Of a stretch of 64,000 nt of DNA, positions 2,423 to 42,521 are shown piece by piece. How positions within the stretch are numbered: position 1 is the first letter of the stretch; every line of letters starts with the position of its first letter. The notes under the pieces were generated by a model, which saw nothing but the letters and a program-made list of their open reading frames with translations, ran no database searches and had not been told where the DNA came from. The stretch lies in the NCBI GenBank assembly GCA_030652805.1, contig JAUSPT010000032.1, positions 6,973 through 70,972 on the forward strand, given 5' to 3'. This DNA is from a bacterium (lineage in GTDB: Bacteria > JAHJDO01). The translations under genes and the position numbers were made by a program.

Positions 2423-2425
2423 AAG

Positions 2426-2971
2426 CTAACTCGCTTTCTTAAAATCTAATCTTTGACTTATTATTAAAATTAGTTTTGCTGATAGATAACCGATCATGCT
2501 GCCTGCAACTATATCTAATGGATAATGAACTCCTATATAGACTCTGGAGAATGCAACCAGAAAAGCCAATAAATAAAATAATAGCCATTTTTTATAATAA
2601 CCAGACAACACTGCAGCCGTTGAAAAAGCAGTCTGAGAATGGCCTGATGGAAATGAGCCTACATATAATTTTTGTCCATATATATTCATATCCATAAATT
2701 GAGACAATGGCCTGGGTCTCTGAATAAGCTCTTTCAAGATATGAACAACTATGCCTCCCAAAAAGATAGTAATTAGTGATATGACGAGTATTAATAAAGC
2801 ATTTTTTCTGTCAAAGATTAATATGCTTACTACTATAAGTGGGATTAGGAAAAAACCATTTCCTAGTTGCGTCAATGTGAACATTACGAATCCCATACAT
2901 GAATTCCAGAGATGCTGATTAATAAATAGGAAAATTGACTGGTCTATTGATATAATGTAGTCAAGCATCAA
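2426..2971 (-). CDS. PAP2-family membrane phosphatase (undecaprenyl-diphosphatase-like)
   Basis: 181 aa, polytopic membrane protein. PAP2 motifs PSGHS and RVYIGVHYPLD are present. Confidence 0.7.
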   Translation of the reverse strand: MMLDYIISIDQSIFLFINQHLWNSCMGFVMFTLTQLGNGFFLIPLIVVSILIFDRKNALLILVISLITIFLGGIVVHILKELIQRPRPLSQFMDMNIYGQKLYVGSFPSGHSQTAFSTAAVLSGYYKKWLLFYLLAFLVAFSRVYIGVHYPLDIVAGSMIGYLSAKLILIISQRLDFKKAS

Positions 2972-8807: not shown

Positions 8808-9698
8808 TCAGGCGTCGCCTCCAACCGTCTTGTTAGAAGATCTTTTCTTGTCAGTTCTCGGCTCCAAGCACCAGAAATCATCCGTGATTCCCGCGCTCTC
8901 CAACATCTGGCTGGTTTTCTCAAAATCAATGTCATAGTGAGCGGTATGGCAGTCTGAACCGATGCTGAGACGAACTCCCTGCGATTTTAGTTCAGCCAGA
9001 TATTCCAGGTATTGGGAGACAAATCCTTCTGGATAGTGTGGATTCAACAGATTTGCCCCGATATTGATTTCGACCGCCGTATTATGCTTGATCGCCGCTG
9101 CGGCGAACTCTCGATGCATGGATCTCGGAATCACGCTGAAGTCATCAAACCATGGTTCTGCTGGATAATTGTTATTTTCGTCTTTCCAGTGTCCCATCCA
9201 CCACCAGGGATGTGCGACAATATCTACCAGGGGATGAGTTGCTAGAAACATGTTTTGTCTGTGATAATCTCGGATCACGGCCTTACGTTCCATCGGAACG
9301 TACATAGGCCAGTGTGTGCCGCCGATTACGTATTCGATCTGGTATTTCGCTATGTCTTCTGCAGTGATTCCTATCGCAAGGGAACATCCTTGTTGACCAC
9401 CCGAACGCAAGCCGTAGACAGGCTTATCGTGCTGACCGCTCGCGATTTCGTCAAGTTCCCATTGCGACACACAACTCGCCTCAACCCCGAAATGAAAACG
9501 AGAGGAAGGGGCGGTGAACAGGAATTCCTCTCGAGACCTGGCAATATCGGCCAGGTTGTACGGAGTGTGCAAATGATCCGTTAATCCAAAATCGCAAATA
9601 TCCTTTTCCTCTGCTTCACGAACAAGATCTGAGACTGTCATGCAAGCCCCGTCGCATGAGTTCTGTGAATGGATGTGCCAGTCGGATACCAACTTCAT
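8808..9698 (-). CDS. PHP-domain metal-dependent phosphoesterase
   Basis: 296 aa. N-terminal HxH motif (DWHIHS) and further His/Asp ligands characteristic of PHP. Local GC is clearly higher than in the flanks. Confidence 0.6.
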   Translation of the reverse strand: MKLVSDWHIHSQNSCDGACMTVSDLVREAEEKDICDFGLTDHLHTPYNLADIARSREEFLFTAPSSRFHFGVEASCVSQWELDEIASGQHDKPVYGLRSGGQQGCSLAIGITAEDIAKYQIEYVIGGTHWPMYVPMERKAVIRDYHRQNMFLATHPLVDIVAHPWWWMGHWKDENNNYPAEPWFDDFSVIPRSMHREFAAAAIKHNTAVEINIGANLLNPHYPEGFVSQYLEYLAELKSQGVRLSIGSDCHTAHYDIDFEKTSQMLESAGITDDFWCLEPRTDKKRSSNKTVGGDA

Positions 9699-9905
9699 TC
9701 CGTCGACCTTCTAACATTAATCAGTGAACATTTAGTTCTACTTTAATATTACCATAGCTCAGATTGCTTCGTCGTTCCAAAAGATTTCTGAACTTTGCAG
9801 CAAAATTATATTTCAACTTATACAAACGCAAGAATAATTGCAATAGAGAGCATTGACATCATGGTAGAGGTTACAATAATACTGCCATTATAAAGGACGC
9901 TGCTT

Positions 9906-11132
9906 TTAATCAAAACGTTTGATGGTCTTTGCGAAGATTTCCGCTTGACGATCCGCTTCAACAGTATCAAAATAATTGGTTTTCAGCATGATGATCCATG
10001 GCTGGATTTTCTCCCAGACAGGACAACTTCCACGCTCATAGCGGGGTAGCTTGCCTGCGAGCTGAGGATAACGATCCTTGTTCTCATCAACGGACTTGTT
10101 CAGGTTTGCGAAAACAGGTTCAAGATGAACAGGTTGATATGATCCGTAAAAACCGTCGCCTCCAAGCTCAATAAAAGTGGCTAAGAAGTCTGACCACACA
10201 ATATCATTACGCGTGATCCTTGCTGCGTAGTTCCAGTAAGCATTGACGTACCCTTCTGGGTTTTTCTGAGGAACAATCCACTCACAGTCATTAACGACAC
10301 TGTCAAATACATTAGCGCTGTATGTGCGCATCTTTGCCAGTTCATCGATACGCTCAAGTTCAGCTAGCGCTACCGCAGCGGCTATTTCAGGCAGACGCTG
10401 GTTCCAGCCTATACTATCGTGTCTCTGGTAATTCGGTTGGCAACGCAACTGTTCCGAGACTACATTATCGCCCGGTTTAAGAGTAAGATCTTTAAATCCA
10501 ATGGTAGCTGCCTTCCTAGCCGCAAGCGCCAGTGTATCATCTGAACAGATCAAGATACCGCCGTCACCGCAGGTCAGTGTTTTAGAAGACTGAAAACTGA
10601 AGCTGGCAAAATGGCCGATGGAGCCGGTTACGCGTCCTTTGTAGTAACCCAATATGCTCTGAGCATTGTCTTCAATAACAACAAGGTTATGCTCTTCGGC
10701 TAATTCCATGATTGGATCCATATCAGCTGGCAATCCACAGATGGAAACAGGAATAATTGCTCGTGTTCGTGGCGTTATGTGCTTGCGGATGGCGTCTATA
10801 CTGATAGTCCATGTATCAGGATCTACGTCAACAATTATCGGAATAGCATTGCAGTGCAACACTGCCGCCGGAGTTGAAAACACAGTAAAAGTCGGAACAA
10901 TTACCTCATCACCAACCCCAACGCCTGCGGCCATAAGCGCGCTCTGCATTGTAGCAGTGCCGTTGCAGTGAGCTATGCCGTAAGTCTGTCCGAAACGTTC
11001 CGCAAATTCACGCTCGAGCCTAGCAGTCATGCCCACAGAATGGGAATTGTGAAATCCAAAATCAAGAACTTGTTTCACATATTCATAGGACTTTGGTGCA
11101 ACACGCGGGATCCTTTTGGGTAAATTAGCCAT
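9906..11132 (-). CDS. DegT/DnrJ/EryC1/StrS-family sugar aminotransferase (ArnB/perosamine synthase-like)
   Basis: 408 aa. DegT-family PLP fold (GDEVIVPTFT ... SFQSSKTLT lysine region). GC-rich relative to the rest of the genome. Confidence 0.85.
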   Translation of the reverse strand: MANLPKRIPRVAPKSYEYVKQVLDFGFHNSHSVGMTARLEREFAERFGQTYGIAHCNGTATMQSALMAAGVGVGDEVIVPTFTVFSTPAAVLHCNAIPIIVDVDPDTWTISIDAIRKHITPRTRAIIPVSICGLPADMDPIMELAEEHNLVVIEDNAQSILGYYKGRVTGSIGHFASFSFQSSKTLTCGDGGILICSDDTLALAARKAATIGFKDLTLKPGDNVVSEQLRCQPNYQRHDSIGWNQRLPEIAAAVALAELERIDELAKMRTYSANVFDSVVNDCEWIVPQKNPEGYVNAYWNYAARITRNDIVWSDFLATFIELGGDGFYGSYQPVHLEPVFANLNKSVDENKDRYPQLAGKLPRYERGSCPVWEKIQPWIIMLKTNYFDTVEADRQAEIFAKTIKRFD

Positions 11133-26665: not shown

Positions 26666-26740
26666 TGGTGGGCGATACTGGGTTTGAACCAGTGACTTCT
26701 ACTCTGTGAAAGTAGCACTCTACCGCTGAGTTAATCGCCC
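26666..26740 (-). tRNA. tRNA-Val (anticodon CAC)
   Basis: Folds as a cloverleaf with acceptor GGGCGAT/ATCGCCC, D-stem ACTC/GAGT, anticodon stem CTACT/AGTAG with loop TTCACAG, T-arm ACTGG/CCAGT with loop TTCAAAC. CCA is encoded. Confidence 0.85.
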
Positions 26741-26797
26741 AAAAACTCACAGAAGTTTATATCACAAAAATTTTATATTTTCAAACTTACCTAAATC

Positions 26798-26876
26798 TGG
26801 TACGCCTGAGAGGATTCGAACCTCCGACACAGGGATTAGGAATCCCTTGCTCTATCCATTACTGAGCTACAGGCGC
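26798..26876 (-). tRNA. tRNA-Arg (anticodon CCT)
   Basis: Cloverleaf with acceptor GCGCCTG/CAGGCGT (one G-U pair), anticodon stem AGGGA/TCCCT with loop TTCCTAA, T-arm GGAGG/CCTCT with loop TTCGAAT. CCA is encoded. Confidence 0.8.
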
Positions 26877-26884
26877 ATATTCGC

Positions 26885-27397
26885 TCAATATTTTATCAAT
26901 GAACTTACTTCATATCCTTCAAGTTTCTCAGCGCCTTTCAGAAACGTAAGGTCTATAAGAAACACGATCTTTGATACATTTCCGCCAAGTTTCTTAACAA
27001 GTTTAACTGTTGCCAAACTTGTTCCGCCTGTTGCAAGAAGGTCATCTATAACCAGAACACTATCTCCATGTTTTATTGCGTCTTCATGTATTTCCAATGT
27101 ATCAGTGCCGTATTCCAGTGTGTATGTCTCCTTTATTGTCTTGTATGGAAGTTTTCCCGGCTTTCTGAGCGGAACAAACCCTGCTCCAAGCTTGTATGCC
27201 AACGCTCCGCCGAATATAAAACCTCTTGCTTCTACAGCAACTACAATATCAATCTTTTTTTCCTCGCATTCTTCTGCAAGTTTATCAACCGCCTCTTTAA
27301 ACGCATCTTTATCCTTAAGTAATGTAGTTATATCTTTAAAAATTATACCCTTTTTGGGGAAATCGGGCACGTCCCGAATCAAATCTTTTAAGTCCAT
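26885..27397 (-). CDS. apt: adenine phosphoribosyltransferase
   Basis: 170 aa. PRPP-binding motif VLVIDDLLATGGT. Confidence 0.9.
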   Translation of the reverse strand: MDLKDLIRDVPDFPKKGIIFKDITTLLKDKDAFKEAVDKLAEECEEKKIDIVVAVEARGFIFGGALAYKLGAGFVPLRKPGKLPYKTIKETYTLEYGTDTLEIHEDAIKHGDSVLVIDDLLATGGTSLATVKLVKKLGGNVSKIVFLIDLTFLKGAEKLEGYEVSSLIKY

Positions 27398-27421
27398 TTT
27401 ACCCTCCTTGTTAGTTCCATT

Positions 27422-28438
27422 TTACCTTAACCTAAAAATCATATATGTACTGGCAATGTATACCATAATTATAGCTATTGCGTCCCAACCAAGCTTAAGA
27501 AAGGATTTTTTTGATCTATAAATGATCCCAACTATCACAATCATCGTTAAAAGAATTCCCATAACTGCTGTCAGAATGTGCGTAGAAGATAGATAGGCAT
27601 ATATAGAACCTGTTCTGTATAAGACATCGCTGATTGGTATCAGCACTATATTGAGCATGTTGCTTCCAAATATATTTCCAATCGCCATATCAAAAAGACC
27701 CATTTTAACTGCTCCTATTGTTGCCATAAGCTCAGGAAGAGATGTTACTATCGCAAGGAAAAGGCTGCCAACAAAAGTTTCCCCTAATCCGGTTCCTACG
27801 GCTATAAGTTTAGCAGTGTGAGCAACCCATATACTTCCTCCAAAAATAGCTGCTGCACAAAACAGATAGCCAAAAATTGTCTTTGCAACGGAAACATTCT
27901 CATATTTTTTTTCTTCTGCCACTTCCCTATCCTGAGATTCATCAGAATGATGTTCATCAGAATTACGATATTGATATCTAAATGAAAGACGCATGCCTAC
28001 TAAATATATTCCTATTATCAAGAAACTTGCAGGACCTATAGAAAAGACTGACATTGCATCTTTCAATAACATGCCTAAAATCGCCACTACTGAGAGAATT
28101 GCAGAAATTGCACCCAGTAAAATTAACCCAAGATTTACTTTCCTTAAAATCGGGCCATGACCTTGAATAATATCGAGTATCGCGATTATAAAAAGATTAA
28201 ATATGATACTTCCAAGGACATTGCCTGCAGCTAAATTAGGAGCTTTCTCAATAACTACGGAACTGCACGTAGTGAAAAGTTCAGGAAGCGCTGTTGCACC
28301 GGCAAGAAATATCATTCCTACCCATGCCCGGCCAATACCTGTCTTTTCGGCAATTATATCCCCGTATTTTGATAACTTAAAACCAGCAAGAATAATTATA
28401 ATTGCGCCTATTGAGAATTGAATCCAAACATTTAGCAT
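27422..28438 (-). CDS. Na+/Ca2+ exchanger family (CaCA, YrbG-like) membrane protein
   Basis: 338 aa polytopic protein with two alpha-repeat regions (GNVLGS..., GNIFGSNMLN). Confidence 0.75.
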   Translation of the reverse strand: MLNVWIQFSIGAIIIILAGFKLSKYGDIIAEKTGIGRAWVGMIFLAGATALPELFTTCSSVVIEKAPNLAAGNVLGSIIFNLFIIAILDIIQGHGPILRKVNLGLILLGAISAILSVVAILGMLLKDAMSVFSIGPASFLIIGIYLVGMRLSFRYQYRNSDEHHSDESQDREVAEEKKYENVSVAKTIFGYLFCAAAIFGGSIWVAHTAKLIAVGTGLGETFVGSLFLAIVTSLPELMATIGAVKMGLFDMAIGNIFGSNMLNIVLIPISDVLYRTGSIYAYLSSTHILTAVMGILLTMIVIVGIIYRSKKSFLKLGWDAIAIIMVYIASTYMIFRLR

Positions 28439-29632: not shown

Positions 29633-31108
29633 GTGGGAAAGAGCAAAAATTACATAGCTGTTGATCTGGGCGCAGAAAGTGGACGATTAACACTTGGTAA
29701 ATTCGAGGGAAAGAAAATAGTTCTTGAAGAGAAACATAGATTTGCTACAGGAGGCACAAGACTTAATAATACCCTCTATTGGGGCGCCATAAATTTCTTT
29801 AACGAGATAAAAAAAGGACTGCAAAAGTGTTCTAAGTCTAAAATCTCTGCAATTGCATTCGATAGCTGGGGCGTAGATTTCGGACTCATTGATAAAAATA
29901 ACCATCTATTAGAAAATCCTGTACATTATCGTGATAAGCGGACTGATGGAATGATGGAAGAATGTTTCAAAAAACTGTCGCGAGAAGAAGTATTTGAAGG
30001 GACAGGTATCCAGTTTATGCAAATAAATACACTTTATCAACTACTATGGATGAGAATAAATCAGCCCCATCTTCTTCAATCGAGCGATTGTCTCTTGCCG
30101 ATAGCCGCCCTGTTTACTTATTTCTTCTCCGGAGAAAAAGCAGCGGAATTTACCCTGGCTACTACCACTCAATGTTATGATCCTCGCAAGAATAGATGGA
30201 GCGGTGAAATTCTAGAAAGATTAGATATTCCCTGCAAAATAATGCCCCGTATTGTAAATCCTGGGACAGTTATAGGCAAACTACTACCGTCTATATCTTG
30301 TGAATTGGGAATATCTCAAATACCCCTCATTGCTACAGCGTCGCATGATACAGCTGCAGCAGTTGCGGCTGTTCCTGCTCAAGGAAATAACTGGGCATTT
30401 TTAAGTTCGGGCACATGGTCTTTAATGGGATGTGAAATAAGCAGTCCATTGATAAATAAGGAAGTCTTGAAAAACAATTTTACTAATGAAGGAGGCGTAA
30501 ACAATACATTTCGTTTTCTAAAAAATATCATGGGGCTCTGGCTGGTTCAGGAATGCAAAAGAAACTGGGAATCCAATGGTACAAAACTCCCCTACCCTGC
30601 TTTAACAAAAGAGGCAGAAAAGGCAAAAGCATTTCTCTGTTTTATCGATCCTGAAGACGCAACTTTTTTGAAGCCGGGCAATATGCCAGAAAAAATACAG
30701 AACTACTGTCGCAAAACAAATCAAAAAGTTCCATCGGATAGAGGAAGCATCTTGCGTTGTGTCATGGAAAGCCTGGCCTTTAAATATCGCCAGGTTCTTG
30801 AAAAACTTGAAGAAATGCGACAGCGAAAAATAGATGTGCTCCACATTGTTGGAGGAGGAATACAAAACAAGCTTTTATGTCAACTCACTGCGAATGCAAC
30901 TAAAAAACATATCATTGCCGGTCCTGTTGAGGCAACAGCAACTGGTAATATCCTGATACAGGCCATTGCAACGGGTGAACTCTCATCCGTTAAACAGGCA
31001 AGAGAAATTGTTCGAAACTCGTTTGAGCTCATCAGATATGAACCTGAACAAACAGATATATGGGAAGAAGCTTATGAAAGATATAAAAATCACAAATCAA
31101 AGACTTAA
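29633..31108 (+). CDS. FGGY-family carbohydrate kinase (rhamnulokinase-like)
   Basis: 491 aa with a GTG start. N-terminus AVDLGAESGR...HRF and an overall pattern resembling RhaB-type FGGY kinases. Confidence 0.75.
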   Translation: MGKSKNYIAVDLGAESGRLTLGKFEGKKIVLEEKHRFATGGTRLNNTLYWGAINFFNEIKKGLQKCSKSKISAIAFDSWGVDFGLIDKNNHLLENPVHYRDKRTDGMMEECFKKLSREEVFEGTGIQFMQINTLYQLLWMRINQPHLLQSSDCLLPIAALFTYFFSGEKAAEFTLATTTQCYDPRKNRWSGEILERLDIPCKIMPRIVNPGTVIGKLLPSISCELGISQIPLIATASHDTAAAVAAVPAQGNNWAFLSSGTWSLMGCEISSPLINKEVLKNNFTNEGGVNNTFRFLKNIMGLWLVQECKRNWESNGTKLPYPALTKEAEKAKAFLCFIDPEDATFLKPGNMPEKIQNYCRKTNQKVPSDRGSILRCVMESLAFKYRQVLEKLEEMRQRKIDVLHIVGGGIQNKLLCQLTANATKKHIIAGPVEATATGNILIQAIATGELSSVKQAREIVRNSFELIRYEPEQTDIWEEAYERYKNHKSKT

Positions 31109-31123
31109 CCTTGGAGCAATAAA

Positions 31124-32230
31124 ATGCAAACTATGAAAGCTGTTTTTTTATACACAGACAGACCGAAACATATGGAAACAGAAAACGTTTCAAAACCGGA
31201 TTGTAAAGCAGAAGATGTACTGATAAGAGTTACTGCTTGCGCTGTTTGTGGAACAGATGGAAGAATGTACGAAGGAACAAAAGACGTTACTAAAGGATCT
31301 GTCCCCCAAATCAGAGGATATGGTGAAGGCAAATTTATTATAGGTCATGAAATCGTAGGAATCATAGAAGAAATTGGTTCTGAAGTTAAAAATCCAGAAT
31401 ATGAGATTGGATGCAAAGTAATTCTGGTAACTTCCATAGGCTGCCAAAAAGAAGAGTGCAGACCTTGCAGAGAAGGCAACTACAATATGTGCGCCAATAA
31501 CCAGCCTATTGGATATTATTATCCTGGAGGTTTTGCTGAATACATATTAGTTCAGGATCATGCTGTGAAACAAGGCGTTATAATCCCTGTCACAACCGAG
31601 GAGCGTATTTTAGATGAACATCTGGCAATGGTTGAACCACTTTCCTGCGCAATAAACGGCCAGAATTATCTAAACATCAAAAAAGGAGAGTATGTTGCTA
31701 TAGTAGGAGCAGGTCCCATTGGTTTGATGCATGCGCTACTAGCAAAAGATAAAGGAGCAAAGGTTATACTGGCTGAATATTCTTCAGAAAGGCTCATAAA
31801 GGCAAAAGAATTTGGGTTTGACCATTATATTGCTACTAAAGAGACTGATTTAATGCAGAATATATCAGAAATTACTAAAGGCGAAGGTATTGACGTGGGA
31901 ATAGTTGCATGCTCCGTTAATAAAGTCGCAGAAGATCTTTTAGGAGCAATGGCTATGAAAGGAAGATTAAGCTTTTTTGCTGGATTCCCAAAACAGAATT
32001 CCATTTTAAAATTAGATGGGAACATAATTCATTATAAAGAAGTCTCTATTTACGGAGCGTTTGCTTCGCATAAAGCACAATTTGAGGAAGCTTTAAAGCT
32101 GATTGTCAGCAGAAAAATACTTATGGATAAAATAGTTACGCATACATTCCCTTTAGAGAATACAGTTGAAGCAATGGAAAAAATGCTGGATAAAAAGGGA
32201 AATGCTTTAAAAGTGGTTATAAAACCGTAA
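31124..32230 (+). CDS. zinc-dependent medium-chain alcohol/polyol dehydrogenase
   Basis: 368 aa. Zn-ligand region GHEIVG and NAD-binding motif GAGPIGL. Confidence 0.8.
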   Translation: MQTMKAVFLYTDRPKHMETENVSKPDCKAEDVLIRVTACAVCGTDGRMYEGTKDVTKGSVPQIRGYGEGKFIIGHEIVGIIEEIGSEVKNPEYEIGCKVILVTSIGCQKEECRPCREGNYNMCANNQPIGYYYPGGFAEYILVQDHAVKQGVIIPVTTEERILDEHLAMVEPLSCAINGQNYLNIKKGEYVAIVGAGPIGLMHALLAKDKGAKVILAEYSSERLIKAKEFGFDHYIATKETDLMQNISEITKGEGIDVGIVACSVNKVAEDLLGAMAMKGRLSFFAGFPKQNSILKLDGNIIHYKEVSIYGAFASHKAQFEEALKLIVSRKILMDKIVTHTFPLENTVEAMEKMLDKKGNALKVVIKP

Positions 32231-32251
32231 AAAAATATAAATAAGAGGAGC

Positions 32252-33055
32252 TTGAATGAAATGTCACAGCCTGGTTTGAAAGGAAAAACAGTTTTAGTAA
32301 CTGGTGCAGGACAAGGATTCGGAGAGGCTATAGCAGCATATTTTGCAAAAGAGGGATGTCTGGTAGCTGTTGCAGACATATCAGAAAAAAACGCAGAAAA
32401 AGTAGCTGGAGAAATAGAAAAAAAATATAAAAACAAAGCAGTTGCGATAGAGGCAGACGTAACACAAGAAGCCCAGGTAACCAATATGTTTGAGAGGATT
32501 GAGAAAGAATTTAAGAATCTGGATATATTAGTCAGTAATGCTGGAATTCTTATTGCAAAGGAAATAACAGAATTCCCTCTTAAAGAATGGAAAAGAGTGA
32601 TGGATGTAAACCTTATCGGCTATTTCCTGTGTGCCCGTGAGGCAGCAAAGATAATGAAAAAACAAAAGAAGGGCGTAATTATACAAATTAACTCTAAATC
32701 TGGTAAAAAAGGTAGTTTTAAAAATTCTGCATATGCTGCATCTAAATTTGGAGGCATAGGACTAACTCAAAGTATTGCTCTGGATTTAGCTCCCTATGGC
32801 ATAAGAGTCAATGCGGTTTGTCCTGGTAATTTTCTTGATTCTCCTTTATGGAAGAACAGTCTCTTTGACCAGTATTCAAAAAAATGGGGTATTTCAAAAG
32901 AAGAGGTAAGAAAAAAATATATTGAACAGGTCCCATTAGGAAGAGGCTGTACCTATGACGATGTTATCAATGCAGTAGCTTTTCTGGTAAGTGATGAGGC
33001 CTCTTACATAACAGGTCAGGCCATAAACGTAACTGGTGGACAGGAAATGAGATGA
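32252..33055 (+). CDS. SDR-family oxidoreductase
   Basis: TGAGQGFG glycine motif, NAG, and YxxxK (YAASK). Confidence 0.8.
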   Translation: MNEMSQPGLKGKTVLVTGAGQGFGEAIAAYFAKEGCLVAVADISEKNAEKVAGEIEKKYKNKAVAIEADVTQEAQVTNMFERIEKEFKNLDILVSNAGILIAKEITEFPLKEWKRVMDVNLIGYFLCAREAAKIMKKQKKGVIIQINSKSGKKGSFKNSAYAASKFGGIGLTQSIALDLAPYGIRVNAVCPGNFLDSPLWKNSLFDQYSKKWGISKEEVRKKYIEQVPLGRGCTYDDVINAVAFLVSDEASYITGQAINVTGGQEMR

Positions 33056-34257
33056 TAGAAGAACTGGAAGCTCGTCTTGATAATTTTGATAAAAATGTGA
33101 GAAAAAACGCCCTCTTAGAACTTATCAAGCTTAAAAAAGATGGGAAAGTTAAGTGGGCAGAGGAAAAAGAAATTTCAAACATGCATTGTCATAGCTTTTT
33201 CTCATTCAATGGATATGGCTATTCACCAATAAAGATAGCATGGCTATGCAAAAAAAATGGTATTAAACTTTGCCAAATAGTGGATTTTGACGTTCTGGAC
33301 GGAATTGAAGAGCTATTTTATGCAGCTGACTTATTAAATCTAAGAGCATCTGTTGGCATAGAAACTAGAGTTTTTATCCCGGAATTTAAAGATAAGGAGA
33401 TAAATTCTCCCGGAGAGCCTGGAATCTACTACTTAATGGGTGTGGGATTTACAAAACTTCCCTCTCCTGAATCCCCTATTTATAAGATATTAACTGATAT
33501 GTCTCATCGAGCACATATGCGAACCAGAAAAATGGTTGATATATTAAATGAATATCTGGATGACATCAGGGTTAAATATGAGACAGACGTTATTTCCCTG
33601 ACTCCCAATGGTAACGTCACGGAAAGACACATCTTAAGAGCTTTTTATAATAAATCAAAGGACGTTTTTAAAAACCCTGCAAGCTTCATCAGGTATTGGA
33701 CATCAAAACTTCCCGTCCAAGAAGAGGATATCAATAATAGTCTGGATAACCCTCATGTTTTATGCGAAATAATTCGTTCAAAGCTCATGAAAAAGGGTGG
33801 GATTGCCTATATAAAACCCGACTCAGCGACCTTCCCAGAGATTCAAACAGTAAATAAAATGACAACAGAATTAGGCGGAATACCATGCGCAACATGGCTT
33901 AATGGGCTCTCTGATGGTGAGAAAAAGCTGGAGGAATTACTTGCTTTATTAATCAGCAAGGGAATTTCAATGATGAACATAATCCCTGATAGAAATTACA
34001 ATATAAAGGATAAAAAAGAAAAAAGGATTAAAGTGAAAAATCTCTATAAAGCTGTGGAGATTGCAAAAAGATTTAATCTTCCTATAATAGCAGGCACAGA
34101 GATGAACAAGTTTGGGCAGAAACTTGTTGATGATTTTAATTCCAAAGAATTAAGCCCTATTAGAAAAACATTTATGGATGGTGCGAATTTTTTATATGAT
34201 CATACCTTAATGCAAAGAACCAAGGAGAAAGGAAAAAGGATAAATGAAGAATATTAA
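33052..34257 (+). CDS. PHP-domain-like metal-dependent hydrolase (uncertain)
   Basis: 401 aa. HCH motif near residue 45. Later SHRAH, GTEMN and DH motifs are consistent with a PHP/TIM-barrel phosphoesterase. No strong family recognition. Confidence 0.4.
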   Translation: MIEELEARLDNFDKNVRKNALLELIKLKKDGKVKWAEEKEISNMHCHSFFSFNGYGYSPIKIAWLCKKNGIKLCQIVDFDVLDGIEELFYAADLLNLRASVGIETRVFIPEFKDKEINSPGEPGIYYLMGVGFTKLPSPESPIYKILTDMSHRAHMRTRKMVDILNEYLDDIRVKYETDVISLTPNGNVTERHILRAFYNKSKDVFKNPASFIRYWTSKLPVQEEDINNSLDNPHVLCEIIRSKLMKKGGIAYIKPDSATFPEIQTVNKMTTELGGIPCATWLNGLSDGEKKLEELLALLISKGISMMNIIPDRNYNIKDKKEKRIKVKNLYKAVEIAKRFNLPIIAGTEMNKFGQKLVDDFNSKELSPIRKTFMDGANFLYDHTLMQRTKEKGKRINEEY

Positions 34258-34924
34258 TATCAAAAAACAGTTAATAGAAATAGGCAAAAAGATTGCTGAT
34301 AAAGGACTAGTTGTAGGTCCGGGCGGCAATATAAGCGCAAGGATTGGCAATATTGTTTATATGAAAGCCAGCGGCATTTGTTTTGAAGAGGCAAAAGCAT
34401 CAGACTATATAGGGGTTAACTTAAAAACAGGTAAGATTGTAGACGGAAGCAAAAAGCCCACATGTGAAATCGCTATGCATTTAGGTTGTTATCTTGAAAG
34501 AAAAGATATAACTGCAGTAATCCACACTCATCCTCCTACTGCTACTGCCGTCGGAATGCTCGGCATAACGCTTGAACCTTTTACACCAGATTTTGTTGCA
34601 CTCGTAGATTCTGATGTCCCAACTATAAACTACGTATGTCCATCAACCAAAGAGCTGGCAAATGAAATAAAAAAAGTTATAAAAAAACATAACGCTGTCC
34701 TGATGTGTAATCATGGACTCTTGACTGTTGGCTCAAATTTAGTGGAAGCTTATTACAGAACACTTCTCATTGAAGATGCCTGCAAAACGTTCGTAGCGGC
34801 AAAGTCACTGGGCAAGATGAAATTTTTTACAAGAGGTCAGGCTAAAGAGATTAATAATCTTAAAGCAGAGTCTTATAGAAAAGCATTGTTAAAAAAAAAG
34901 GAGTATGAGCTATGCCAGATGTAG
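34244..34924 (+). CDS. class II aldolase/adducin-family protein (fuculose-/rhamnulose-1-phosphate aldolase-like)
   Basis: 226 aa. GPGGNISAR motif and a His-rich zinc site HTHP. Confidence 0.8.
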
Positions 34925-35808
34925 ATAGTACCAAAAAGAAAAAGAATTTTTATACAGATATTCCTATGAAAACACCCGGTTTCTTTCTCAAGGGATCGGG
35001 TGCGTATGATTGGGGCATGAAGAATCGCCTGGCACGAATCTTTAAACCAGAAACTGGACGAACAGTAATGCTTGCAATAGATCATGGATATTTCCAGGGG
35101 CCAACAACAGGGTTGGAACGAATTGATTTAAACATTGTACCCCTTGTTCCATACGCTGACGCACTGATGCTTACACGCGGTATTTTGCGAACAACGATAC
35201 CTCCTTCATTCAATAAGGCAATTGTGATGCGTGCCAGCGGTGGACCGAGCATCCTGAAGGAACTCTCGAATGAAGAAATAGCTGTTGGTATCGAGGATGC
35301 TATCCGGATGAACGTGGCTGCAATAGCGATTCAGGTATTTATTGGAGGCGAATTCGAGACTCGTTCGGTACACAATATGACTCGCCTCGTCGATATGGGC
35401 ATCCGATACGGAATTCCGGTTATGGCAGTGACATCTGTCGGCAAGGATATGACCAGGGATGCAAAATATTTTCGCCTTGCCTGCCGCATTTGCGCTGAAC
35501 TGGGTGCACAGGTTGTCAAGACATATTATATCCCGGAGGATTTTGAAACAGTGACAGCCTCCTGTCCAGTGCCCATTGTGATGGCGGGTGGTAAGAAAAT
35601 TCCGCTCTTGGATGCTTTGACAATGGCTTATAACGCTGTGCAACAGGGAGCTGCGGGTGTGGATATGGGACGAAATATTTTTCAGAGTGAGTTCCCGACC
35701 GCCATGATTCAGGCAGTAAGTAATATTGTTCACAAAAATATGAAACCGGCCGATGCACTTGAGGTTTATAACACGCTGAAGAACAAAATGGAAAAGGAGC
35801 AGAAATAA
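34912..35808 (+). CDS. DhnA/FbaB/LsrF-type (DeoC superfamily) class I aldolase
   Basis: 298 aa. MLAIDHG motif, and a Schiff-base lysine context [11 protein letters not shown]-rich relative to neighbours. Confidence 0.75.
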
Positions 35809-36122
35809 ATAGAGTTATCCCTATCATTCGTGGACTTCTGGCGGAATTCTCCGGCAGCGATGACATCCCATATCACCGAGTTATCCTTAAATCGTTTACA
35901 ACCAAAGATACCCGGGATTTCGTAGCTTCATCTCCTCCTCTGTACTTAGATACACTTGAGTACGACGCGGCTCCAGAAAAGCTTCGGGAACATATCTCAT
36001 CGTCACTCGCCGATTATTCACGACAATACGCTGCAAAACCTCAGGTAATATTACTGCCTGATGCTGGAATCGTCCAGGTCATTGAAAAAGCGGCTAAGCC
36101 TGACCCTCCTCTTCGAAACGAA

Positions 36123-36911
36123 GTGGCTCTTCTTACAGGTGCCGCTGGGGCGATTGGTTCTGGAATATGCCGGAGGCTTCTGGAAAATGGCTGCCGAGTG
36201 GCCGCGACCGACTTGCCAGGAAAACGCCTCGACGACTTCGTCTCCGAGTTTAAGAAAAGTGCTGGTGATTACATCATCGGCGTTCCGCTCGATGTGACAG
36301 ACAAGGAGTCAGTAACAGACGGGTTTAACAGTGTTATCCGGGAATGGGGTGGTATTGACATTGTCCTTGTGAACGCTGGTATCCCGTTAATCTCATCAAT
36401 TATGGAAATGAACCTCAATGACTTTCGCCGACTGGAGAAGGTGAATGTTGAAGGCACCTTATTAACACTTGCAGAAGCCGGACGTCACATGTGTTTGCAG
36501 GGTACTGGCGGCGATATCGTTCTTACATCGACAAAGAACGTCTTTAGTCCAGGTGCTCGATTTGGCGCCTACAGCGCAACCAAGGCCGCTTCGCACCAGT
36601 TGGCCAGGATTGCTAGTCTGGAACTTGCTGAATTTGGAATTCGAGTGAACATGGTTGCGCCCGATGCAGTGTTCTCCGATGGAGAATGCAAATCCGGCTT
36701 ATGGAAAAAAATAGGTCCTGATCGCATGCGCCACAAGGGAATTGATGAAAAAGAACTCCATGAGCATTACCGCCAGCGCAATCTCCTTAAGACCACGATA
36801 ACAGCACAACATGTGGCAAATGCAGTATTGTTTTTTGTAACACGGCAGACACCTACTACCGGGGCTACAATTCCGGTGGACGGTGGTCTTCCAGATGCTA
36901 CTCCAAGATAG
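36123..36911 (+). CDS. SDR-family oxidoreductase (with an upstream startless in-frame extension from 35809)
   Basis: TGAAGAIG glycine motif and YSATK. The first start codon (GTG) is at 36123, but the same frame is open from 35809, directly after the upstream stop. Confidence 0.7.
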   Translation: MALLTGAAGAIGSGICRRLLENGCRVAATDLPGKRLDDFVSEFKKSAGDYIIGVPLDVTDKESVTDGFNSVIREWGGIDIVLVNAGIPLISSIMEMNLNDFRRLEKVNVEGTLLTLAEAGRHMCLQGTGGDIVLTSTKNVFSPGARFGAYSATKAASHQLARIASLELAEFGIRVNMVAPDAVFSDGECKSGLWKKIGPDRMRHKGIDEKELHEHYRQRNLLKTTITAQHVANAVLFFVTRQTPTTGATIPVDGGLPDATPR

Positions 36912-36925
36912 ACAACAGGTCTTTT

Positions 36926-37723
36926 TTATTCTGGAGTTTCAGAGATCAAAGAGCAGTCCTTCGGGATTCGTCCCGTAGAATTCCCCTTTATATTTTTTTT
37001 GAGAAGATAATCATTTGTTGATTGTATGGAATTTACAATTACAATAGAATCTTTTCGTATAACAAATTCAGAAAGACCTATTTCTGAAGTGGTTGGGTTC
37101 CAGTCATATGTATATCCTAATCGAGTCCAAGGATATTGTCTGGCGGCATAATAGGATGAAATAATTTTTTTATTAAACCAGTTTATATATGATTTTTCTG
37201 CATTTTCAGGAAATTCTAATTGAACTGATTTATCCCATATTTCGTTATCTGGACTTGGACGAAACAAGCTATCCGGTCTGACCCATAATTCTACAAAATG
37301 AGAATATCCGCTATTTTTAGGAAGGCCTAATAATTGTTCTGTTCTTAAATTTAGTTTTTCATTTTTATAATTATTATTAAACCAATTTTGAACTTCAGGA
37401 ACGATGGTTACCCATGTATCTCCCCAGAAGGTTTTTATAATTTTACTTCTTTTATAATTGTTAATATCTTTGGTCCAGGTAACAGTTAATACATATTTAT
37501 GGCCATTAATTTTCTCCCAACAGATATAGCCGTTTTTCTCATTAATATCAATAAGCCGGTTTGAGATTTCATCTTCTTCTGCAATCATGCTATCAATAAC
37601 AGCACTTTTATATAATGTATCAGTATCAACATGTTTAGAATCAATGATGTTTTTATTTGAACAGCCTAATAACTGTACAAAAATAAGAAGTAAAGTAATT
37701 TGTGTTTTTATATTGATTTTCAT
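36926..37723 (-). CDS. hypothetical lipoprotein
   Basis: 265 aa. Signal peptide with lipobox LLGCS. Trp/Asn-rich, no recognisable domain. Confidence 0.5.
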   Translation of the reverse strand: MKINIKTQITLLLIFVQLLGCSNKNIIDSKHVDTDTLYKSAVIDSMIAEEDEISNRLIDINEKNGYICWEKINGHKYVLTVTWTKDINNYKRSKIIKTFWGDTWVTIVPEVQNWFNNNYKNEKLNLRTEQLLGLPKNSGYSHFVELWVRPDSLFRPSPDNEIWDKSVQLEFPENAEKSYINWFNKKIISSYYAARQYPWTRLGYTYDWNPTTSEIGLSEFVIRKDSIVIVNSIQSTNDYLLKKNIKGNSTGRIPKDCSLISETPE

Positions 37724-37770
37724 GCTGACTGACTGACTTCTGTCATCATAGATATAACTTCTGCTCTCGC

Positions 37771-38568
37771 TTATTTCAACTTGTAATCCTGCAGCTTAAC
37801 AAAACTGAATCCCTTACTCTTAAGTTCCGGAACCGCGGCTATTATTCCCTCTGCGGTTTCCTTTTCAGGGTGGTTCATATGACATATTATTATATCACCA
37901 GGTTGAGATTTGAGCAGGGATTCCTTCACCTTTCCCGCGGAATAGCTTGCTCCTGCATCACCAAGCACGCTGAAACCGGCTATCTCATAACCAAGCTCAT
38001 TCACTATCTTCGCCGCCACTTCATCATAATAAGCGGTTCCTGACCTGTAGAACTTCGCCTTGCGCCCCGTAAGAGATTCTATTTTTAAAGCGTTTTTTTC
38101 TATTTCATCAACCACCTGTCCGACGTTTTTCGTGCCCTCAATACCGTAAATGGACTTTCCGTTTACTGAGCAGGGTCTATGCATTAAACCATGGTTTTCT
38201 ATTTCAAAAAGCGGGTTTGCTGCGAGCTTGTCAAATATATCAGGAAACTTGTCTATCCATCTTGCATTTATAAACAGTGTTGCCTGAACCTTCTCCTTGA
38301 TAAGATAGTTTACCAGCTTTGCGTCATAACTATCAGTTTTTGAGCCGCATGCATCTAACGTTAACGCGAGCACATTATCACTCGTATCAAGTTTTGTTTT
38401 CACTCCGGGAACATTCTCCGCCCACTGTTTCGGAACACGGTGAACATATTTGGCGATTATAATCGCCTTTGATTCTTTATACTCCAGTGAGTCCGCGGGT
38501 GCAAATCTGCATCCGGAAATTACAGGAAGACCATAAGCAGCAATCAACAATATTAATATTTTTACCAT
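37771..38568 (-). CDS. polysaccharide deacetylase (NodB-homology) family lipoprotein
   Basis: Signal peptide with ISGC lipobox. NodB-like motifs LTLDAC, HGLMHRP and RSGTAYYD. Confidence 0.6.
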   Translation of the reverse strand: MVKILILLIAAYGLPVISGCRFAPADSLEYKESKAIIIAKYVHRVPKQWAENVPGVKTKLDTSDNVLALTLDACGSKTDSYDAKLVNYLIKEKVQATLFINARWIDKFPDIFDKLAANPLFEIENHGLMHRPCSVNGKSIYGIEGTKNVGQVVDEIEKNALKIESLTGRKAKFYRSGTAYYDEVAAKIVNELGYEIAGFSVLGDAGASYSAGKVKESLLKSQPGDIIICHMNHPEKETAEGIIAAVPELKSKGFSFVKLQDYKLK

Positions 38569-38586
38569 TATTTGTTATGTGGCATT

Positions 38587-39024
38587 CTACTCACCAATAT
38601 CTTCATTCCACAGTTCTGGATTATTTTTGATAAACGTCTCCATAAGCTGACGACATTCTTTGTTATCAATAATAACCACTTCTACGCCTCGCGACCTTAC
38701 GTAATCTTCCGGCCCGCAAAATGTACGGTTCTCTCCAATAACTACTTTTGGAATTCTATAAAGAAGCACTGCGCCGCTGCACATATCACAGGGAGACAAT
38801 GTCGAGTACAACGTTGCTCTACGATAATCGGATGCTTTAATTCGTCCCGCATTTTCCAAACAATCCATTTCTGCGTGTAATATTGCACTTCCTTTTTGTA
38901 CTCGCTGGTTGTGACCGCGCCCAACTATTCGGCCATCAATAACAAGTACCGAGCCGATAGGAACACCACCCTCAGCCATCCCCTTTTTCGCTTCCTCAAT
39001 TGCAGCCTCTAAAAATTTATCCAT
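38587..39024 (-). CDS. cytosine deaminase, yeast FCY1-type (CDA fold)
   Basis: 145 aa. HAE and SPCDMCSGA zinc motifs. Near-identity of several blocks to Fcy1 (GRGHN, LYSTLSPCDMC, VIGEN, WNEDIGE). Confidence 0.85.
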   Translation of the reverse strand: MDKFLEAAIEEAKKGMAEGGVPIGSVLVIDGRIVGRGHNQRVQKGSAILHAEMDCLENAGRIKASDYRRATLYSTLSPCDMCSGAVLLYRIPKVVIGENRTFCGPEDYVRSRGVEVVIIDNKECRQLMETFIKNNPELWNEDIGE

Positions 39025-39046
39025 GTTTTCTCCTTAACAAACTGCG

Positions 39047-39880
39047 TCACTGGCTCAGTTCGATGCACGCGATAAAAGCCCTTTGTATTCTGATGAGTTC
39101 CAAGGGTCTGTCCACAGGAGTCATGTGGGCACTTCCCTGTATGACATGATACTGATGGTCATTGGCAAAGTCAGACTGCCATTTAGTAAAGGCAGGCGTA
39201 CACAAATCGTCGCTTCCGCAGGTTATAAGAACAGGGACATCCAGCCTGGACAGTTGCGAGGTTACGTCTACCGTTTTTAGATTCCCAGGTAAATTCAACT
39301 CCGAATCACTTGCAACCATAACGTCGTGGACTGCAGTATTTCGTGCGGCAATCAATTTCTTCATCGATTCAGGTAATGGCCAGGTGTGTGTCACATGCCG
39401 CCTTGTAAATTCCATACATGCCTCGTCATAGTCGCTCTTTGTCCCTACCCCGTTCAACTCATAGTCATCAATAATCTGCCCTGCTTTTCCATTCAAACAA
39501 CTCAAGCCCTGCTTAAGTTTTGGGGCAACATGATTGATGTAATAGGGAAAACTCAATACCGGACTATGGAGAGAAATGGACAATATGCCGTCGGGGTGTT
39601 TGGCAGCAAATCCAACAGCCAGAGTAGTTCCCCATGAATGACCAATCAAATGGTACTTCTTCAGTCCCAGACCGTCCCTAAACGCCTGAAACGCTACGAG
39701 ATTATGATGACTGCCTCCCGGACCGCCGTGCAGAACCAACGCAGCCGGCGCACTGCCGGAGCCAATTCTGCCGTACCATAATTTGTATGTATGACCGTCA
39801 TAGATGTAGTTGAGGAAACCTTCGTAATCATAATCAGGTTCTGTTAAGATTTTTTCCACAGATACTTGTTCTTCATTCAT
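39047..39880 (-). CDS. alpha/beta hydrolase, proline iminopeptidase (S33) family
   Basis: LHGGPGGS and GHSWGT nucleophile-elbow motifs. Start placed at MNEEQ to avoid overlap with the upstream gene. GC-rich. Confidence 0.75.
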   Translation of the reverse strand: MNEEQVSVEKILTEPDYDYEGFLNYIYDGHTYKLWYGRIGSGSAPAALVLHGGPGGSHHNLVAFQAFRDGLGLKKYHLIGHSWGTTLAVGFAAKHPDGILSISLHSPVLSFPYYINHVAPKLKQGLSCLNGKAGQIIDDYELNGVGTKSDYDEACMEFTRRHVTHTWPLPESMKKLIAARNTAVHDVMVASDSELNLPGNLKTVDVTSQLSRLDVPVLITCGSDDLCTPAFTKWQSDFANDHQYHVIQGSAHMTPVDRPLELIRIQRAFIACIELSQ

Positions 39881-40856
39881 GATCTCTTGTTTTTTTGTGG
39901 CTGGATATGTCTTGAATAATGCCGAACAAACGAGTTGCCTTATGGTTTTCATCCATTATCAACCACGATTGTATACGGATTGGAAATACGGTTCCGTCTT
40001 TTCTGATATATTCCTTTTCATACACGCCTGAGTACCCTGTTTTCATAACTTTCTTAAAAAGATCATTTTCCATTGCGTGCCATTTTGAAGGTGTGAGTTC
40101 CTGATAAGTAATGGACTTAATTTCTTCAGATGTATACCCGAGCATTTTAAGATAATTCCTATTGGCTTCGATAGTAATGCCATCTAAAGAATTGATAACT
40201 ATACCTTCGTCTTTGTACTTCCTAAGTTCATTAAGAAGAATGTTGTAACTATCAACATTCATTAATAAGCCAGGTCCCAATTCCTTGATTTCTTTAAGAA
40301 GTTTTTGAGAGGATTCAATACTCAAGTTACTATAGTTGATCTCTTTGATGTAGTATCCACTACCGACAACCCATCCGAATGGTTTAAACAGGAGTACGTA
40401 TGATCTCTTGGGTTGAGCTGTGGTCTGTCCCTTCCTCGGAAACCAGTACTCGACATACCCGCCACCAGCTTTGCCTTTTGTCAGGAATCTCTTTATGTAG
40501 AACGTGCCCTGATGGTCTCTGTCCTCAAGTCGATTCCTTCCCTCCACATCTTTTCGGCCGTACAAAACCACATTGACGCCTTCAGTCGTATCGGCCCAAA
40601 AATATCCTTCGGTACCGTACTTAAGTTCTCGCAGAAGGTCGGCACCAAGCTTCTTTGCCTGCTTAAGGTTCATTTCCCCCTGTTGATGTTTTGTGAAAAT
40701 TGCCTGAAGCATGCTGACCGCTGTTTCGACCTCATGCTTGATCAGCAGGTCCTGAGCCGACGAATTTTTCAGCTTTTCAATCTGCGTACAAGCCGGCAGA
40801 CAAAAAAATGAAATACTCAGAAGAACCACAAACATTGTCATCTTTGCCCTTTTCAT
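39873..40856 (-). CDS. Cache (sCache_2-like) + PAS domain protein without output domain
   Basis: Start at MKRAKM, preceded by an AAGGAGGAAGT ribosome-binding site. Signal/lipobox LPAC, then a Cache-like region (YFWADTTEGVNVV...GGGYVEYWF) and a C-terminal PAS domain. Confidence 0.55.
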   Translation of the reverse strand: MKRAKMTMFVVLLSISFFCLPACTQIEKLKNSSAQDLLIKHEVETAVSMLQAIFTKHQQGEMNLKQAKKLGADLLRELKYGTEGYFWADTTEGVNVVLYGRKDVEGRNRLEDRDHQGTFYIKRFLTKGKAGGGYVEYWFPRKGQTTAQPKRSYVLLFKPFGWVVGSGYYIKEINYSNLSIESSQKLLKEIKELGPGLLMNVDSYNILLNELRKYKDEGIVINSLDGITIEANRNYLKMLGYTSEEIKSITYQELTPSKWHAMENDLFKKVMKTGYSGVYEKEYIRKDGTVFPIRIQSWLIMDENHKATRLFGIIQDISSHKKTRDHE

Positions 40857-40908
40857 ACTTCCTCCTTTTTTATTGTTGAGTTGTTCAATGTCGCCTGCAT
40901 CCGTCTTG

Positions 40909-41421
40909 TTATGCTCCTTTTTTAAGCTTAATATTTTGTGTGTTTTGAATATAGTCAGATGCACAAATCATATATTTTTCAAAATTTTCAACGTCAGAAA
41001 ATTCGTTCCCATCACTTCCATATTTACGAATCAACTCTTGACGGTTTTTCATCTCAGAGCGGTCAAGCCATTGTTTGTCAAACAAAACTCCATAGATGAG
41101 ATACGTGGTCATTATCAATCTAATCATCAATTCTCGAATGCGTTTGTTTTGAGTGATTGCTTCTACAGCTTTTGGCTCAATGAGATTTTTGATAGTGTCA
41201 ACCTTGCTTTGAACATCTGGTTGTAGGCTATCATAGACTTTGACAAAATCATCACCCATCAAATAATTAACAACTTGTATTGCAAGAACCTTTGCAGAGT
41301 CTGGAGTCATCTGTGTTCCATACTGAGATGCCAGATCTAGGTATAGACAAAATCTAAGTTTCGAATCTAAATTCGCAATTGCATTGAGTTGGCTACGAAA
41401 ATTCTTTTTTAACCGAAACAT
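40909..41421 (-). CDS. hypothetical protein
   Basis: 170 aa ORF. No recognisable motifs. Confidence 0.4.
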   Translation of the reverse strand: MFRLKKNFRSQLNAIANLDSKLRFCLYLDLASQYGTQMTPDSAKVLAIQVVNYLMGDDFVKVYDSLQPDVQSKVDTIKNLIEPKAVEAITQNKRIRELMIRLIMTTYLIYGVLFDKQWLDRSEMKNRQELIRKYGSDGNEFSDVENFEKYMICASDYIQNTQNIKLKKGA

Positions 41422-41636: not shown

Positions 41637-42517
41637 TTACCCTCTTGGATGAAACTTCTGGTGAACTTCTCTGAGGCGGGCTCTGTCTATGTGAGTATAA
41701 ATTTGTGTGGTGGAAATATCTACATGACCAAGCATTTCCTGAACAGACCTTAGATCCGCGCCATGGGAGAGAAGATGTGTGGCAAAACAGTGCCTTAGTG
41801 TGTGAACTGTTATCTCTTTATTCATGCCCATTAATACGGAGTACCTTTTTATTATTTTCCATATCCCCTGTCTTGTATATCTTCTGCCAAGCCGGGTTAT
41901 GAAAAGCATATTGCTGTTACCTCTGGCAACATATTTGCTTCTTACTGCATCTATGTATTTTTTAACAGCTTTTTGAGCTTTTCTGCCAACAGGTATAATG
42001 CGCTCCTTTGAGCCCTTGCCAATACATTTCAGATACCCTTCGTGCAAATCTATATTATCAATAGGGAGATTGATAAGCTCTGATACCCTCATACCTGTAG
42101 CATAGAGGAGCTCAAGTATTGCTTTATCTTTTATTCCCTGTTCTTTATTATCTGGCAAAGCCAATAATCTCTCTACTTCATCCTGAGAAAGCACTTCTGG
42201 TAAAGACAAACCTGTTTTTGGAGAATCTAAATTTAGAGTAGGATCATCGTTTATTACATCTTCATTAACCAGAAACTTATAAAACATTCTTATAGCAACT
42301 AGATTTCTTGAAATGGAACGTATGGCAAGCTTGCTTTTTCTAAGATAAATAAGATAGGCTATTATATCTCTGGGACCTACACCTTCTATGCTGACACTAG
42401 ATTTTTTATCCAAAAAGCCTAAGAATTTAGTTAAGTCTCTCCTGTAAGCCTCTAATGTGTTAGCAGCGAGCCCTCGTTCTACTGAAAGATAATCTATAAA
42501 CTGGTCAAGTAATTGAT

Positions 42518-42521
<4 letters not shown>
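41637..42521 (-). CDS. tyrosine recombinase XerC/XerD
   Basis: 294 aa. N-terminal SAM-like domain and a C-terminal R..HxxR..Y catalytic domain (HTLRHCFATHLL ... TQIYTH). Confidence 0.85.

Follow-up and report, generated by a model that had tools for sequence, protein, structure and literature searches.

A conserved short-chain dehydrogenase gene lacking a canonical start codon downstream of an LsrF-like aldolase

An open frame without a start codon

The gene considered here encodes a short-chain dehydrogenase/reductase (SDR) of an uncultivated bacterium (GTDB lineage JAHJDO01) and lies on a 64,000-nucleotide stretch of contig JAUSPT010000032.1 (assembly GCA_030652805.1, positions 6,973 to 70,972), referred to as the window. 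It directly follows the gene of a DhnA/DeoC-type class I aldolase, and its reading frame is open far upstream of the first canonical start codon (ATG, GTG or TTG). The features of this junction, in window coordinates, are listed below.

34912-35808, forward strand: DhnA/DeoC-type class I aldolase, LsrF-like, 298 aa, complete, with stop TAA at 35806-35808
35772-36911, forward strand: long SDR open frame, with stop TAG at 36909-36911 and an in-frame TAA at 35769-35771 just before it
35794-35799, forward strand: Shine-Dalgarno (SD) sequence AAGGAG, inside the 3' end of the aldolase gene and 5 nt upstream of the ATA at 35805
35805-35807, forward strand: proposed start codon ATA, overlapping the aldolase stop as ATAA
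35805-36122, forward strand: N-terminal alpha/beta module (the extension), 106 residues, with homology to the segment after the aldolase domain in bifunctional enzymes of the RhaEW type
36123-36911, forward strand: classical SDR core, the 262-aa open reading frame (ORF) publicly annotated from GTG 36123

Sequence, translation and ORF list agree with the first-pass annotation of this DNA that the first ATG, GTG or TTG of the SDR frame is the GTG at 36123, and that the frame is open upstream of it without a start. The extension of 105 codons described there, counted from 35809, is indeed open and start-less, but its limit was slightly too conservative, as the frame begins at 35811 or, at its widest, at 35772, giving leaders of 104 and 117 codons respectively. 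In this upstream part it overlaps the final 37 nt of the aldolase gene, in the -1 frame relative to the latter. Given the local base composition, the probability of 117 codons without a stop is 0.0024; it is 0.015 for 117 codons without a canonical start, and 3e-5 for the same length with neither. Stops number 3 and 7 in the other two frames of the leader region. The window has 57 open frames of at least 200 codons, among which the SDR leader is the extreme case; the next start-less leaders, 64 and 61 codons long, have the look of shadow frames and not of genes. No second start-less gene, which would point to a genome-wide habit, was found among these 57 frames, the other long leaders being shadow frames or normal overlaps.

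The part of the protein downstream of GTG 36123 is a classical SDR. It scores 138.5 bits against PF00106 (cut-off 26.6), its translation carries the motifs TGAAGAIG, VNAGI (with NAG), STKN and YSATK, and Foldseek comparisons with solved SDRs gave template modelling (TM) scores of 0.82-0.90, normalised to target length. No SD sequence lies ahead of this GTG. Public databases contain the window's gene as P0005 (262 aa, 100% identical), with its start set at GTG 36123, and that of a relative as P0001 (329 aa, 95% identical), for which a lineage-specific GTG was chosen; both annotations are truncated forms of the protein.

Conservation of the extension

A homologue search with the translated frame 35811-36908 as query returned 5031 proteins at E <= 0.001, the best 120 of which were examined. 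Stand-alone proteins of 366-428 aa account for 118 of them, with 56-74% identity to the query and 99-100% coverage of it, leader included; the two exceptions are the truncated annotations P0005 and P0001. Apart from these, no family member without the N-terminal module occurs among the best 120 of the 5031. The possibility, raised in the first-pass annotation, that homologues all begin at the position equivalent to 36123 was thus checked, and the homologues were found to carry the extension. The similarity is collinear over the full length and takes in both the module and the helix RGLLAEPSG, which places the protein among long-form SDRs.

An AlphaFold model built with a 54-sequence alignment has a mean predicted local distance difference test score (pLDDT) of 85 and a predicted TM score of 0.89, and features a compact alpha/beta module ahead of the Rossmann core, with block means of pLDDT of 92-94 over residues 1-30 and 81-96 over residues 41-100. 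In the PDB, Foldseek aligned about 260-277 columns to targets that are SDRs of about 250 residues and found no structure spanning the whole protein; matches of the PDB sequence search were likewise confined to the SDR core. Because 118 homologues align across the leader and the model folds with confidence, the leader can be regarded as a genuine conserved domain, neither junk nor linker.

The origin of this domain is indicated by a search of the extension alone against 1.84 billion representative proteins, which gave 37 matches. In 35 of these proteins, mostly fragments, the match is near the N-terminus, and Pfam, run on 2 of them, identified both as SDRs. P0151 and P0155, the remaining two, are bifunctional class II aldolase-SDR proteins in which the match directly follows the PF00596 domain (BLASTP E 4e-14 and 5e-13, respectively; 36-42% identity). 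In none of the 37 is the extension placed after a DeoC domain. The best NCBIfam match of the SDR core is to the C-terminal part of bifunctional aldolase/SDR models (NF006194, positions 430-703), and both NF006194 (392.5 bits, cut-off 686) and TIGR02632 (205.3, cut-off 567.75) are matched only from positions of about 410-430 to their end, with whole-protein scores well below these cut-offs. The 379-aa SDR open frame, closed upstream by the TAA at 35769, has no PF00596 match. Enzymes of the RhaEW type combine aldolase and dehydrogenase in one bifunctional protein, as in Bacillus subtilis YuxG and Chloroflexus Caur_2283 (PMC3870299; NCBIfam PRK08324). Judged by these alignments, the protein encoded in the window corresponds to the RhaW half together with part of the inter-domain segment of such enzymes, present as a separate gene.

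These results modify what had been proposed on first reading, namely that the extension looked like genuine linker or protein sequence and that the gene pair resembled a bifunctional fusion. Protein it is, as indicated by the homologues and by the substitution ratios given below, and the relationship with the bifunctional enzymes holds (NF006194, P0151 and P0155); in these, however, the partner is a class II aldolase of PF00596 and not a DhnA/DeoC class I enzyme. An interpretation of the extension as the linker of a DhnA fusion was rejected, since the homologous fusions carry the class II aldolase. The proposed recent split of a fusion gene also falls away, as stand-alone proteins are the rule (118 of the best 120) and every junction examined in other family members has a canonical start of its own.

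The junction sequence GAAAAGGAGCAGAAATAAATA is identical in the window, GCA_018812485.1, SRR2544004, SRR27458548 and Ga0222657_1011794, which are five independent assemblies of three related lineages, obtained from different samples and differing by 5-10% in nucleotides. GCA_018812485.1 (locus L001), SRR2544004 and SRR27458548 are three assemblies of one 95% relative, while Ga0222657_1011794 (L032) is a metagenome contig with an extension 90% identical in nucleotides. A canonical start upstream of the module is found neither in the window nor in L001-L003 or L032. The first-pass annotation had also considered a sequencing indel at about 35800-35810, an explanation which draws on nothing but the a priori frequency of such errors in metagenome-assembled genomes (MAGs) and is excluded, its probability being close to nil, by the five independent assemblies, which have one and the same junction across this divergence.

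The same relatives allow the selection acting on the extension to be estimated. Between the window and L001, the rates of synonymous (dS) and non-synonymous (dN) substitution are 0.139 and 0.035, with a dN/dS of 0.25 (10 synonymous and 8 non-synonymous changes; p = 0.006); between the window and L032 they are 0.271 and 0.053, with a dN/dS of 0.20 (18 and 12 changes; p = 6e-5), and between L001 and L032 dN/dS is 0.24 (p against neutrality 1e-4). Similar values are found in the SDR core (0.17-0.27), and the other two frames of the extension give ratios of 0.6 and 2.7. Neither stops nor indels occur in the SDR frame of the extension in the three lineage comparisons. This pattern indicates that the leader is translated and under purifying selection.

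It also bears on the view, implicit in the public annotations of 262 and 329 aa and in the lack of an upstream canonical start, that the gene is crippled and either yields only the core from GTG 36123 (in relatives, from a GTG at the FVAS position) or is a decaying pseudogene. Both versions are rejected because the extension evolves at a dN/dS of 0.20-0.25 without stops or indels, and we hold them to be very unlikely. Beyond the absence of an SD sequence, a start at GTG 36123 would remove residues ahead of the Rossmann beta1 strand; where P0001 has its GTG start the window reads GTA, so that codon is not conserved; and the best homologues, as reported above, retain the module.

Proposed initiation at the aldolase stop

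Two observations confine the start of the gene. The open SDR frame of L032 extends no more than 6 codons upstream of the ATA, and the nearly invariant helix (V/I)(A/I)P(I/V)(V/I)RGLL, which reads VIPIIRGLL in the window, begins 3 codons downstream of it; the start must therefore lie at the junction. Of the near-cognate codons in the SDR frame, ATA 35805 alone stands there at a working distance from the SD sequence, as an AUN codon whose 5-nt spacing falls within 4-9 nt and which lies at the N-terminal boundary of the family. The AAGGAG is identical in L001, L002, L003 and L032, and the same hexamer precedes the ATG of the aldolase and several other genes of the window. Furthermore, the alignment puts the ATA opposite a conserved hydrophobic residue, the L in the N-terminal helix of the family, "RLAxIAP" (46 of 54 sequences), so that an initiating Met at this position would be conservative. 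In the more distant loci L004-L009 a canonical start, ATG in most, is always present, 8-25 codons ahead of the invariant RGLL.

On this basis it is probable that the gene encodes a full-length, functional long-form SDR of 368 aa (35805-36911) which has lost its canonical start, and for which ATA 35805 is the codon most likely used. Of the explanations first offered for the open leader, an unconventional translational start remains, most simply the near-cognate ATA coupled to the aldolase stop. The strong AAGGAG 5 nt upstream would position the ribosome on this codon, and ribosomes terminating at the overlapping aldolase stop would probably feed it by reinitiation, an arrangement which would tie SDR synthesis to aldolase synthesis. 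ATAA is one transition away from the common ATGA stop-start overlap, of which it may be the G->A derivative. Tight spacing of the two genes is seen elsewhere, as the aldolase TAG abuts the SDR ATG in L004 and the gap is 1 nt in L008, which suggests that tight aldolase-SDR coupling is ancestral. The use of ATA, the contribution of reinitiation and the function of the enzyme are what we infer from sequence.

Several points weigh against the ATA start. The conservation of the 22-nt junction over three lineages is not statistically compelling alone, as only about 2-3 changes would be expected, and a frameshift model predicts the same conservation. AUA is a weak initiator in Escherichia coli and is discriminated against by initiation factor 3 (IF3). 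A start at the ATA would also give an N-terminus about 3 residues shorter than that of the shortest credible homologues (MSRLA...). One protein, P0098, appeared to begin exactly at the equivalent of the ATA and was rejected: its annotated TTG start (MARIAPIV...) is probably a mis-call, and with the in-frame ATG that lies 38 nt upstream the protein begins MSNNASNQ..., as is typical of the family. Published measurements nevertheless make an AUA start workable. In E. coli reporters AUA reaches 1-2% of the AUG level (bioRxiv 10.1101/063800); older phage examples lie at 7.5-15%, and in vitro, with an optimised initiation region, it was as active as AUG (PMC5499595). Where genes overlap by 4 nt and an SD sequence lies within the upstream one, termination-reinitiation is widespread (PMC6728339).

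Initiation could instead take place at a non-canonical codon further downstream, namely ATC 35817, ATC 35823, ATT 35826 or CTG 35838, all of which are in the right frame and are near-cognate codons listed in translation table 11. They lie 17-38 nt from the SD sequence, however, and using them would cost the protein some or all of VIPIIRGLL, the nearly invariant helix modelled with a pLDDT of 94; a start at one of them is hardly to be expected.

A different proposal is that ribosomes slip by -1 before the aldolase stop, giving a class I aldolase-SDR fusion of about 666 aa as a non-homologous analogue of RhaEW. The geometry suits it: the SDR is read in the -1 frame of the aldolase, with 37 nt common to both frames (22 nt in L032), an A-AAG slip site falls within this overlap, and the junction is invariant across the three lineages. 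The sites proposed are the tRNA-Lys on AAA 35803-05, with TAA in the A site, and GAA-AAG at 35791-96. Yet no X XXY YYZ heptamer exists in 35772-35808, which offers only the single-tRNA sites A-AAG and G-AAA, and no downstream structure is apparent, the fold of 35780-35900 having a minimum free energy z-score of +0.56. No SD sequence lies 10-14 nt upstream of the candidate sites, as AAGGAG overlaps or abuts them. Its distance from the AAA codon is 3 nt, and a +1 shift at this point runs into the TAG at 35810. An SD spacing of 3 nt favours +1 and not -1 frameshifting, as known from dnaX and prfB.

In RhaEW, aldolase and dehydrogenase do work joined in one polypeptide (PMC3870299), and one natural in-frame DeoC-SDR ORF was found with a chimeric query, which it covers at 100%.

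L100 1681-3711 (ENA ERZ25039473 contig_23523): fused LsrF-like aldolase-long SDR ORF (P0157), 676 aa, with the SDR's own Met 12 residues past the aldolase end

This ORF stands on one 5918-nt contig among the matches of the chimeric query, against thousands of separate genes, and it keeps the Met of the SDR; it could be either a real fusion or an assembly artefact caused by a homopolymer indel in a long-read-style assembly. The extension search, in which 0 of 37 matches followed a DeoC domain, speaks against the fusion as well, and on balance we judge frameshifting to be improbable.

A bolder interpretation takes the conserved ATAA to be no tolerated start defect but a selected device, either an obligate, IF3-sensitive reinitiation at AUA, by which SDR would be made only after aldolase termination and the stoichiometry of the two enzymes be fixed, or a -1 slip yielding the class I aldolase-SDR fusion. 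We would give this idea some weight while considering it unlikely. If true, its slip version would re-create the RhaEW architecture with a non-homologous aldolase, a feasibility at which the single fused ORF P0157 hints.

Under the preferred reading, in which a separate SDR is initiated at ATA 35805, the canonical start could have been lost through a change from ATG to ATA in an ATGA overlap or through a small deletion at the junction; between LK[DN]K and RG, L004 has 7 nt more than the window. A scan of the genome collection returned neither the window's own species nor a relative closer than 70%, and the searches gave no outgroup in the range of 74% to 87% identity.

Operon context, function and comparison with known systems

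The two genes close a tightly packed series, which, with its further features, is as follows.

29633-36911, forward strand: seven-gene operon-like run, tightly packed, with overlapping gene junctions from 33052 onward
34244-34924, forward strand: class II (FucA-like) aldolase, 226 aa, PF00596 at 158 bits, overlapping the next gene by 13 nt
34897-36917: GC-richer aldolase-SDR block, 95% identical to L001 (blastn), with unshared sequence on both sides

In order, the run encodes a rhamnulokinase-like FGGY kinase, a Zn-dependent alcohol dehydrogenase, a sorbitol-6-phosphate-dehydrogenase-like SDR, a PHP-domain protein, the class II aldolase, the LsrF-like class I aldolase and the long SDR. Family scores within it include 499.8 bits for the rhamnulokinase model TIGR02627, just under the cut-off of 528, and 386.7 for NF009050 (cut-off 307). 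The class II aldolase has L-fuculose-phosphate aldolase as its best NCBIfam match, below the cut-off. The LsrF-like aldolase matches NF006081 with 503 bits (cut-off 297) over model positions 1-291 of 291, as expected of an equivalog, in an operon without other lsr genes; its dN/dS is 0.07. It is 74-86% identical to aldolases found beside long SDRs in other phyla, and is always near the long SDR, being adjacent to it in L004 and L008 and separated from it by a ribulose-phosphate epimerase gene in other loci. The 95% relative L001 has a GH106 gene (PF17132) upstream. By analogy, the SDR is probably a RhaW-like (lactaldehyde-type) dehydrogenase which acts with the adjacent aldolases in a 6-deoxy-sugar pathway, probably oxidising the aldehyde released when an aldolase acts on a 6-deoxy-ketose-1-phosphate.

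Pairs of LsrF-like aldolase and long SDR are also present in MAGs of Latescibacterota, Anaerolineaceae and Hydrogenedentota (L004, L005-L009, L026 and L027), and some of the loci add split transketolase-like genes, ribulose-phosphate epimerase, a RuBisCO-like protein and an FGGY kinase. From their gene content, these loci look like a conserved, uncharacterised sugar-phosphate module. In L099, a long SDR (711-1927) is followed by the gene of a 399-aa class II aldolase (2014-3213), an arrangement in which the RhaEW domains stand in the opposite order and in separate genes. In L032, the class II and LsrF-like aldolase genes are 55 nt apart and do not overlap.

As regards composition, the segment had been called foreign over its whole 2 kb. 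GC content is indeed elevated, at 0.46-0.53 across 34950-36900 versus 0.37 for the window, as is GC at third codon positions (GC3), at 0.44 in the LsrF-like aldolase and 0.47 in the long SDR versus 0.23-0.33 in most window genes. The segment is not unique in this, since the genes at 8808-11132 and 37771-40964, among them those of a polysaccharide deacetylase, an alpha/beta hydrolase and a Cache/PAS sensor, are GC3-rich too (0.42-0.53). The data are consistent with the aldolase-SDR block having been acquired, ahead of the divergence of the three lineages, from a donor richer in GC.

Collinear blocks of about 95% identity between the window and L001 comprise 34897-36917, 37728-38562, 38580-39673 and 39884-40517; their edges fall at gene boundaries, with unrelated segments between them, and the shared blocks tend to be GC3-richer. 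At the upstream edge of the first, an A9 homopolymer (34891-34899) lies in the 3' end of the class II aldolase gene, just before the SD sequence of the LsrF-like aldolase. Downstream, 36918-37727 is inserted relative to L001, in which only about 10 nt separate the SDR from the polysaccharide deacetylase gene; the insertion contains a minus-strand ORF (36926-37723) of 265 aa, AT-rich (30% GC), with an N-terminal hydrophobic segment and no Pfam match. A tyrosine recombinase gene is found at 41637-42521. Elsewhere in the window, tRNA-Val(CAC) and tRNA-Arg(CCT) lie on the minus strand within 26666-26876, and a spurious forward frame (26730-27521) crosses both.

The case has practical consequences for annotation. 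Gene callers limited to ATG, GTG and TTG truncate the enzyme by 106 residues (39 in a relative), removing a conserved and well-folded domain, and such truncated models are already in public databases. It is also a clean natural example of a gene kept functional without a canonical start over substantial divergence (dS of about 0.3), and the geometry of the SD sequence and ATAA makes both AUA initiation and termination-reinitiation directly testable. In addition, stand-alone proteins that correspond to the RhaW half of RhaEW and its inter-domain segment are widespread, and they are partnered with a highly conserved LsrF-like class I aldolase. This pairing suggests a non-orthologous replacement in deoxy-sugar catabolism, uncharacterised so far.

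Among known systems, the B. subtilis gene cdd (CGA-AAG) and the gene dnaX exhibit SD-associated -1 frameshifting near gene ends. The window resembles them in having an A-AAG motif and an SD-like element near the end of the upstream gene, but differs in an SD spacing which is wrong for a -1 shift and in lacking a heptamer or structure.

Closer parallels are found among near-cognate starts and coupled genes. The E. coli genes infC and pcnB start at AUU. As in these and in the reported AUA cases (PMC5499595), the window has a near-cognate AUN codon behind a good SD sequence, kept among relatives; unlike infC and pcnB, its codon is AUA and overlaps the upstream stop (AUAA), and no autoregulatory logic is known for it. 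With gene pairs joined by ATGA or TGATG (PMC6728339) it shares the 4-nt stop-start overlap, the SD sequence inside the upstream gene and enzymes that are probably consecutive, whereas its start partner is ATA instead of ATG and its coupling is putative.

At the level of the protein, the SDR core, the N-terminal module (the post-aldolase segment) and an operon with a rhamnulokinase-like kinase and aldolases recall RhaEW, from which the window's polypeptide differs in having no class II aldolase domain and a middle region about 90 residues shorter, and in that the adjacent aldolase is a non-homologous class I enzyme of the DhnA/LsrF type. The stand-alone long-form SDRs of 366-428 aa, annotated as "SDR family NAD(P)-dependent oxidoreductase", match it in full-length alignment, in the module and in the pairing with an LsrF-like aldolase; their starts are canonical (mostly ATG, with a few beginning with V or L, i.e. 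GTG or TTG), whereas the lineage of the window has none. The event is one of a known kind, a non-canonical start accompanied by misannotation, here in an uncultivated bacterial lineage.

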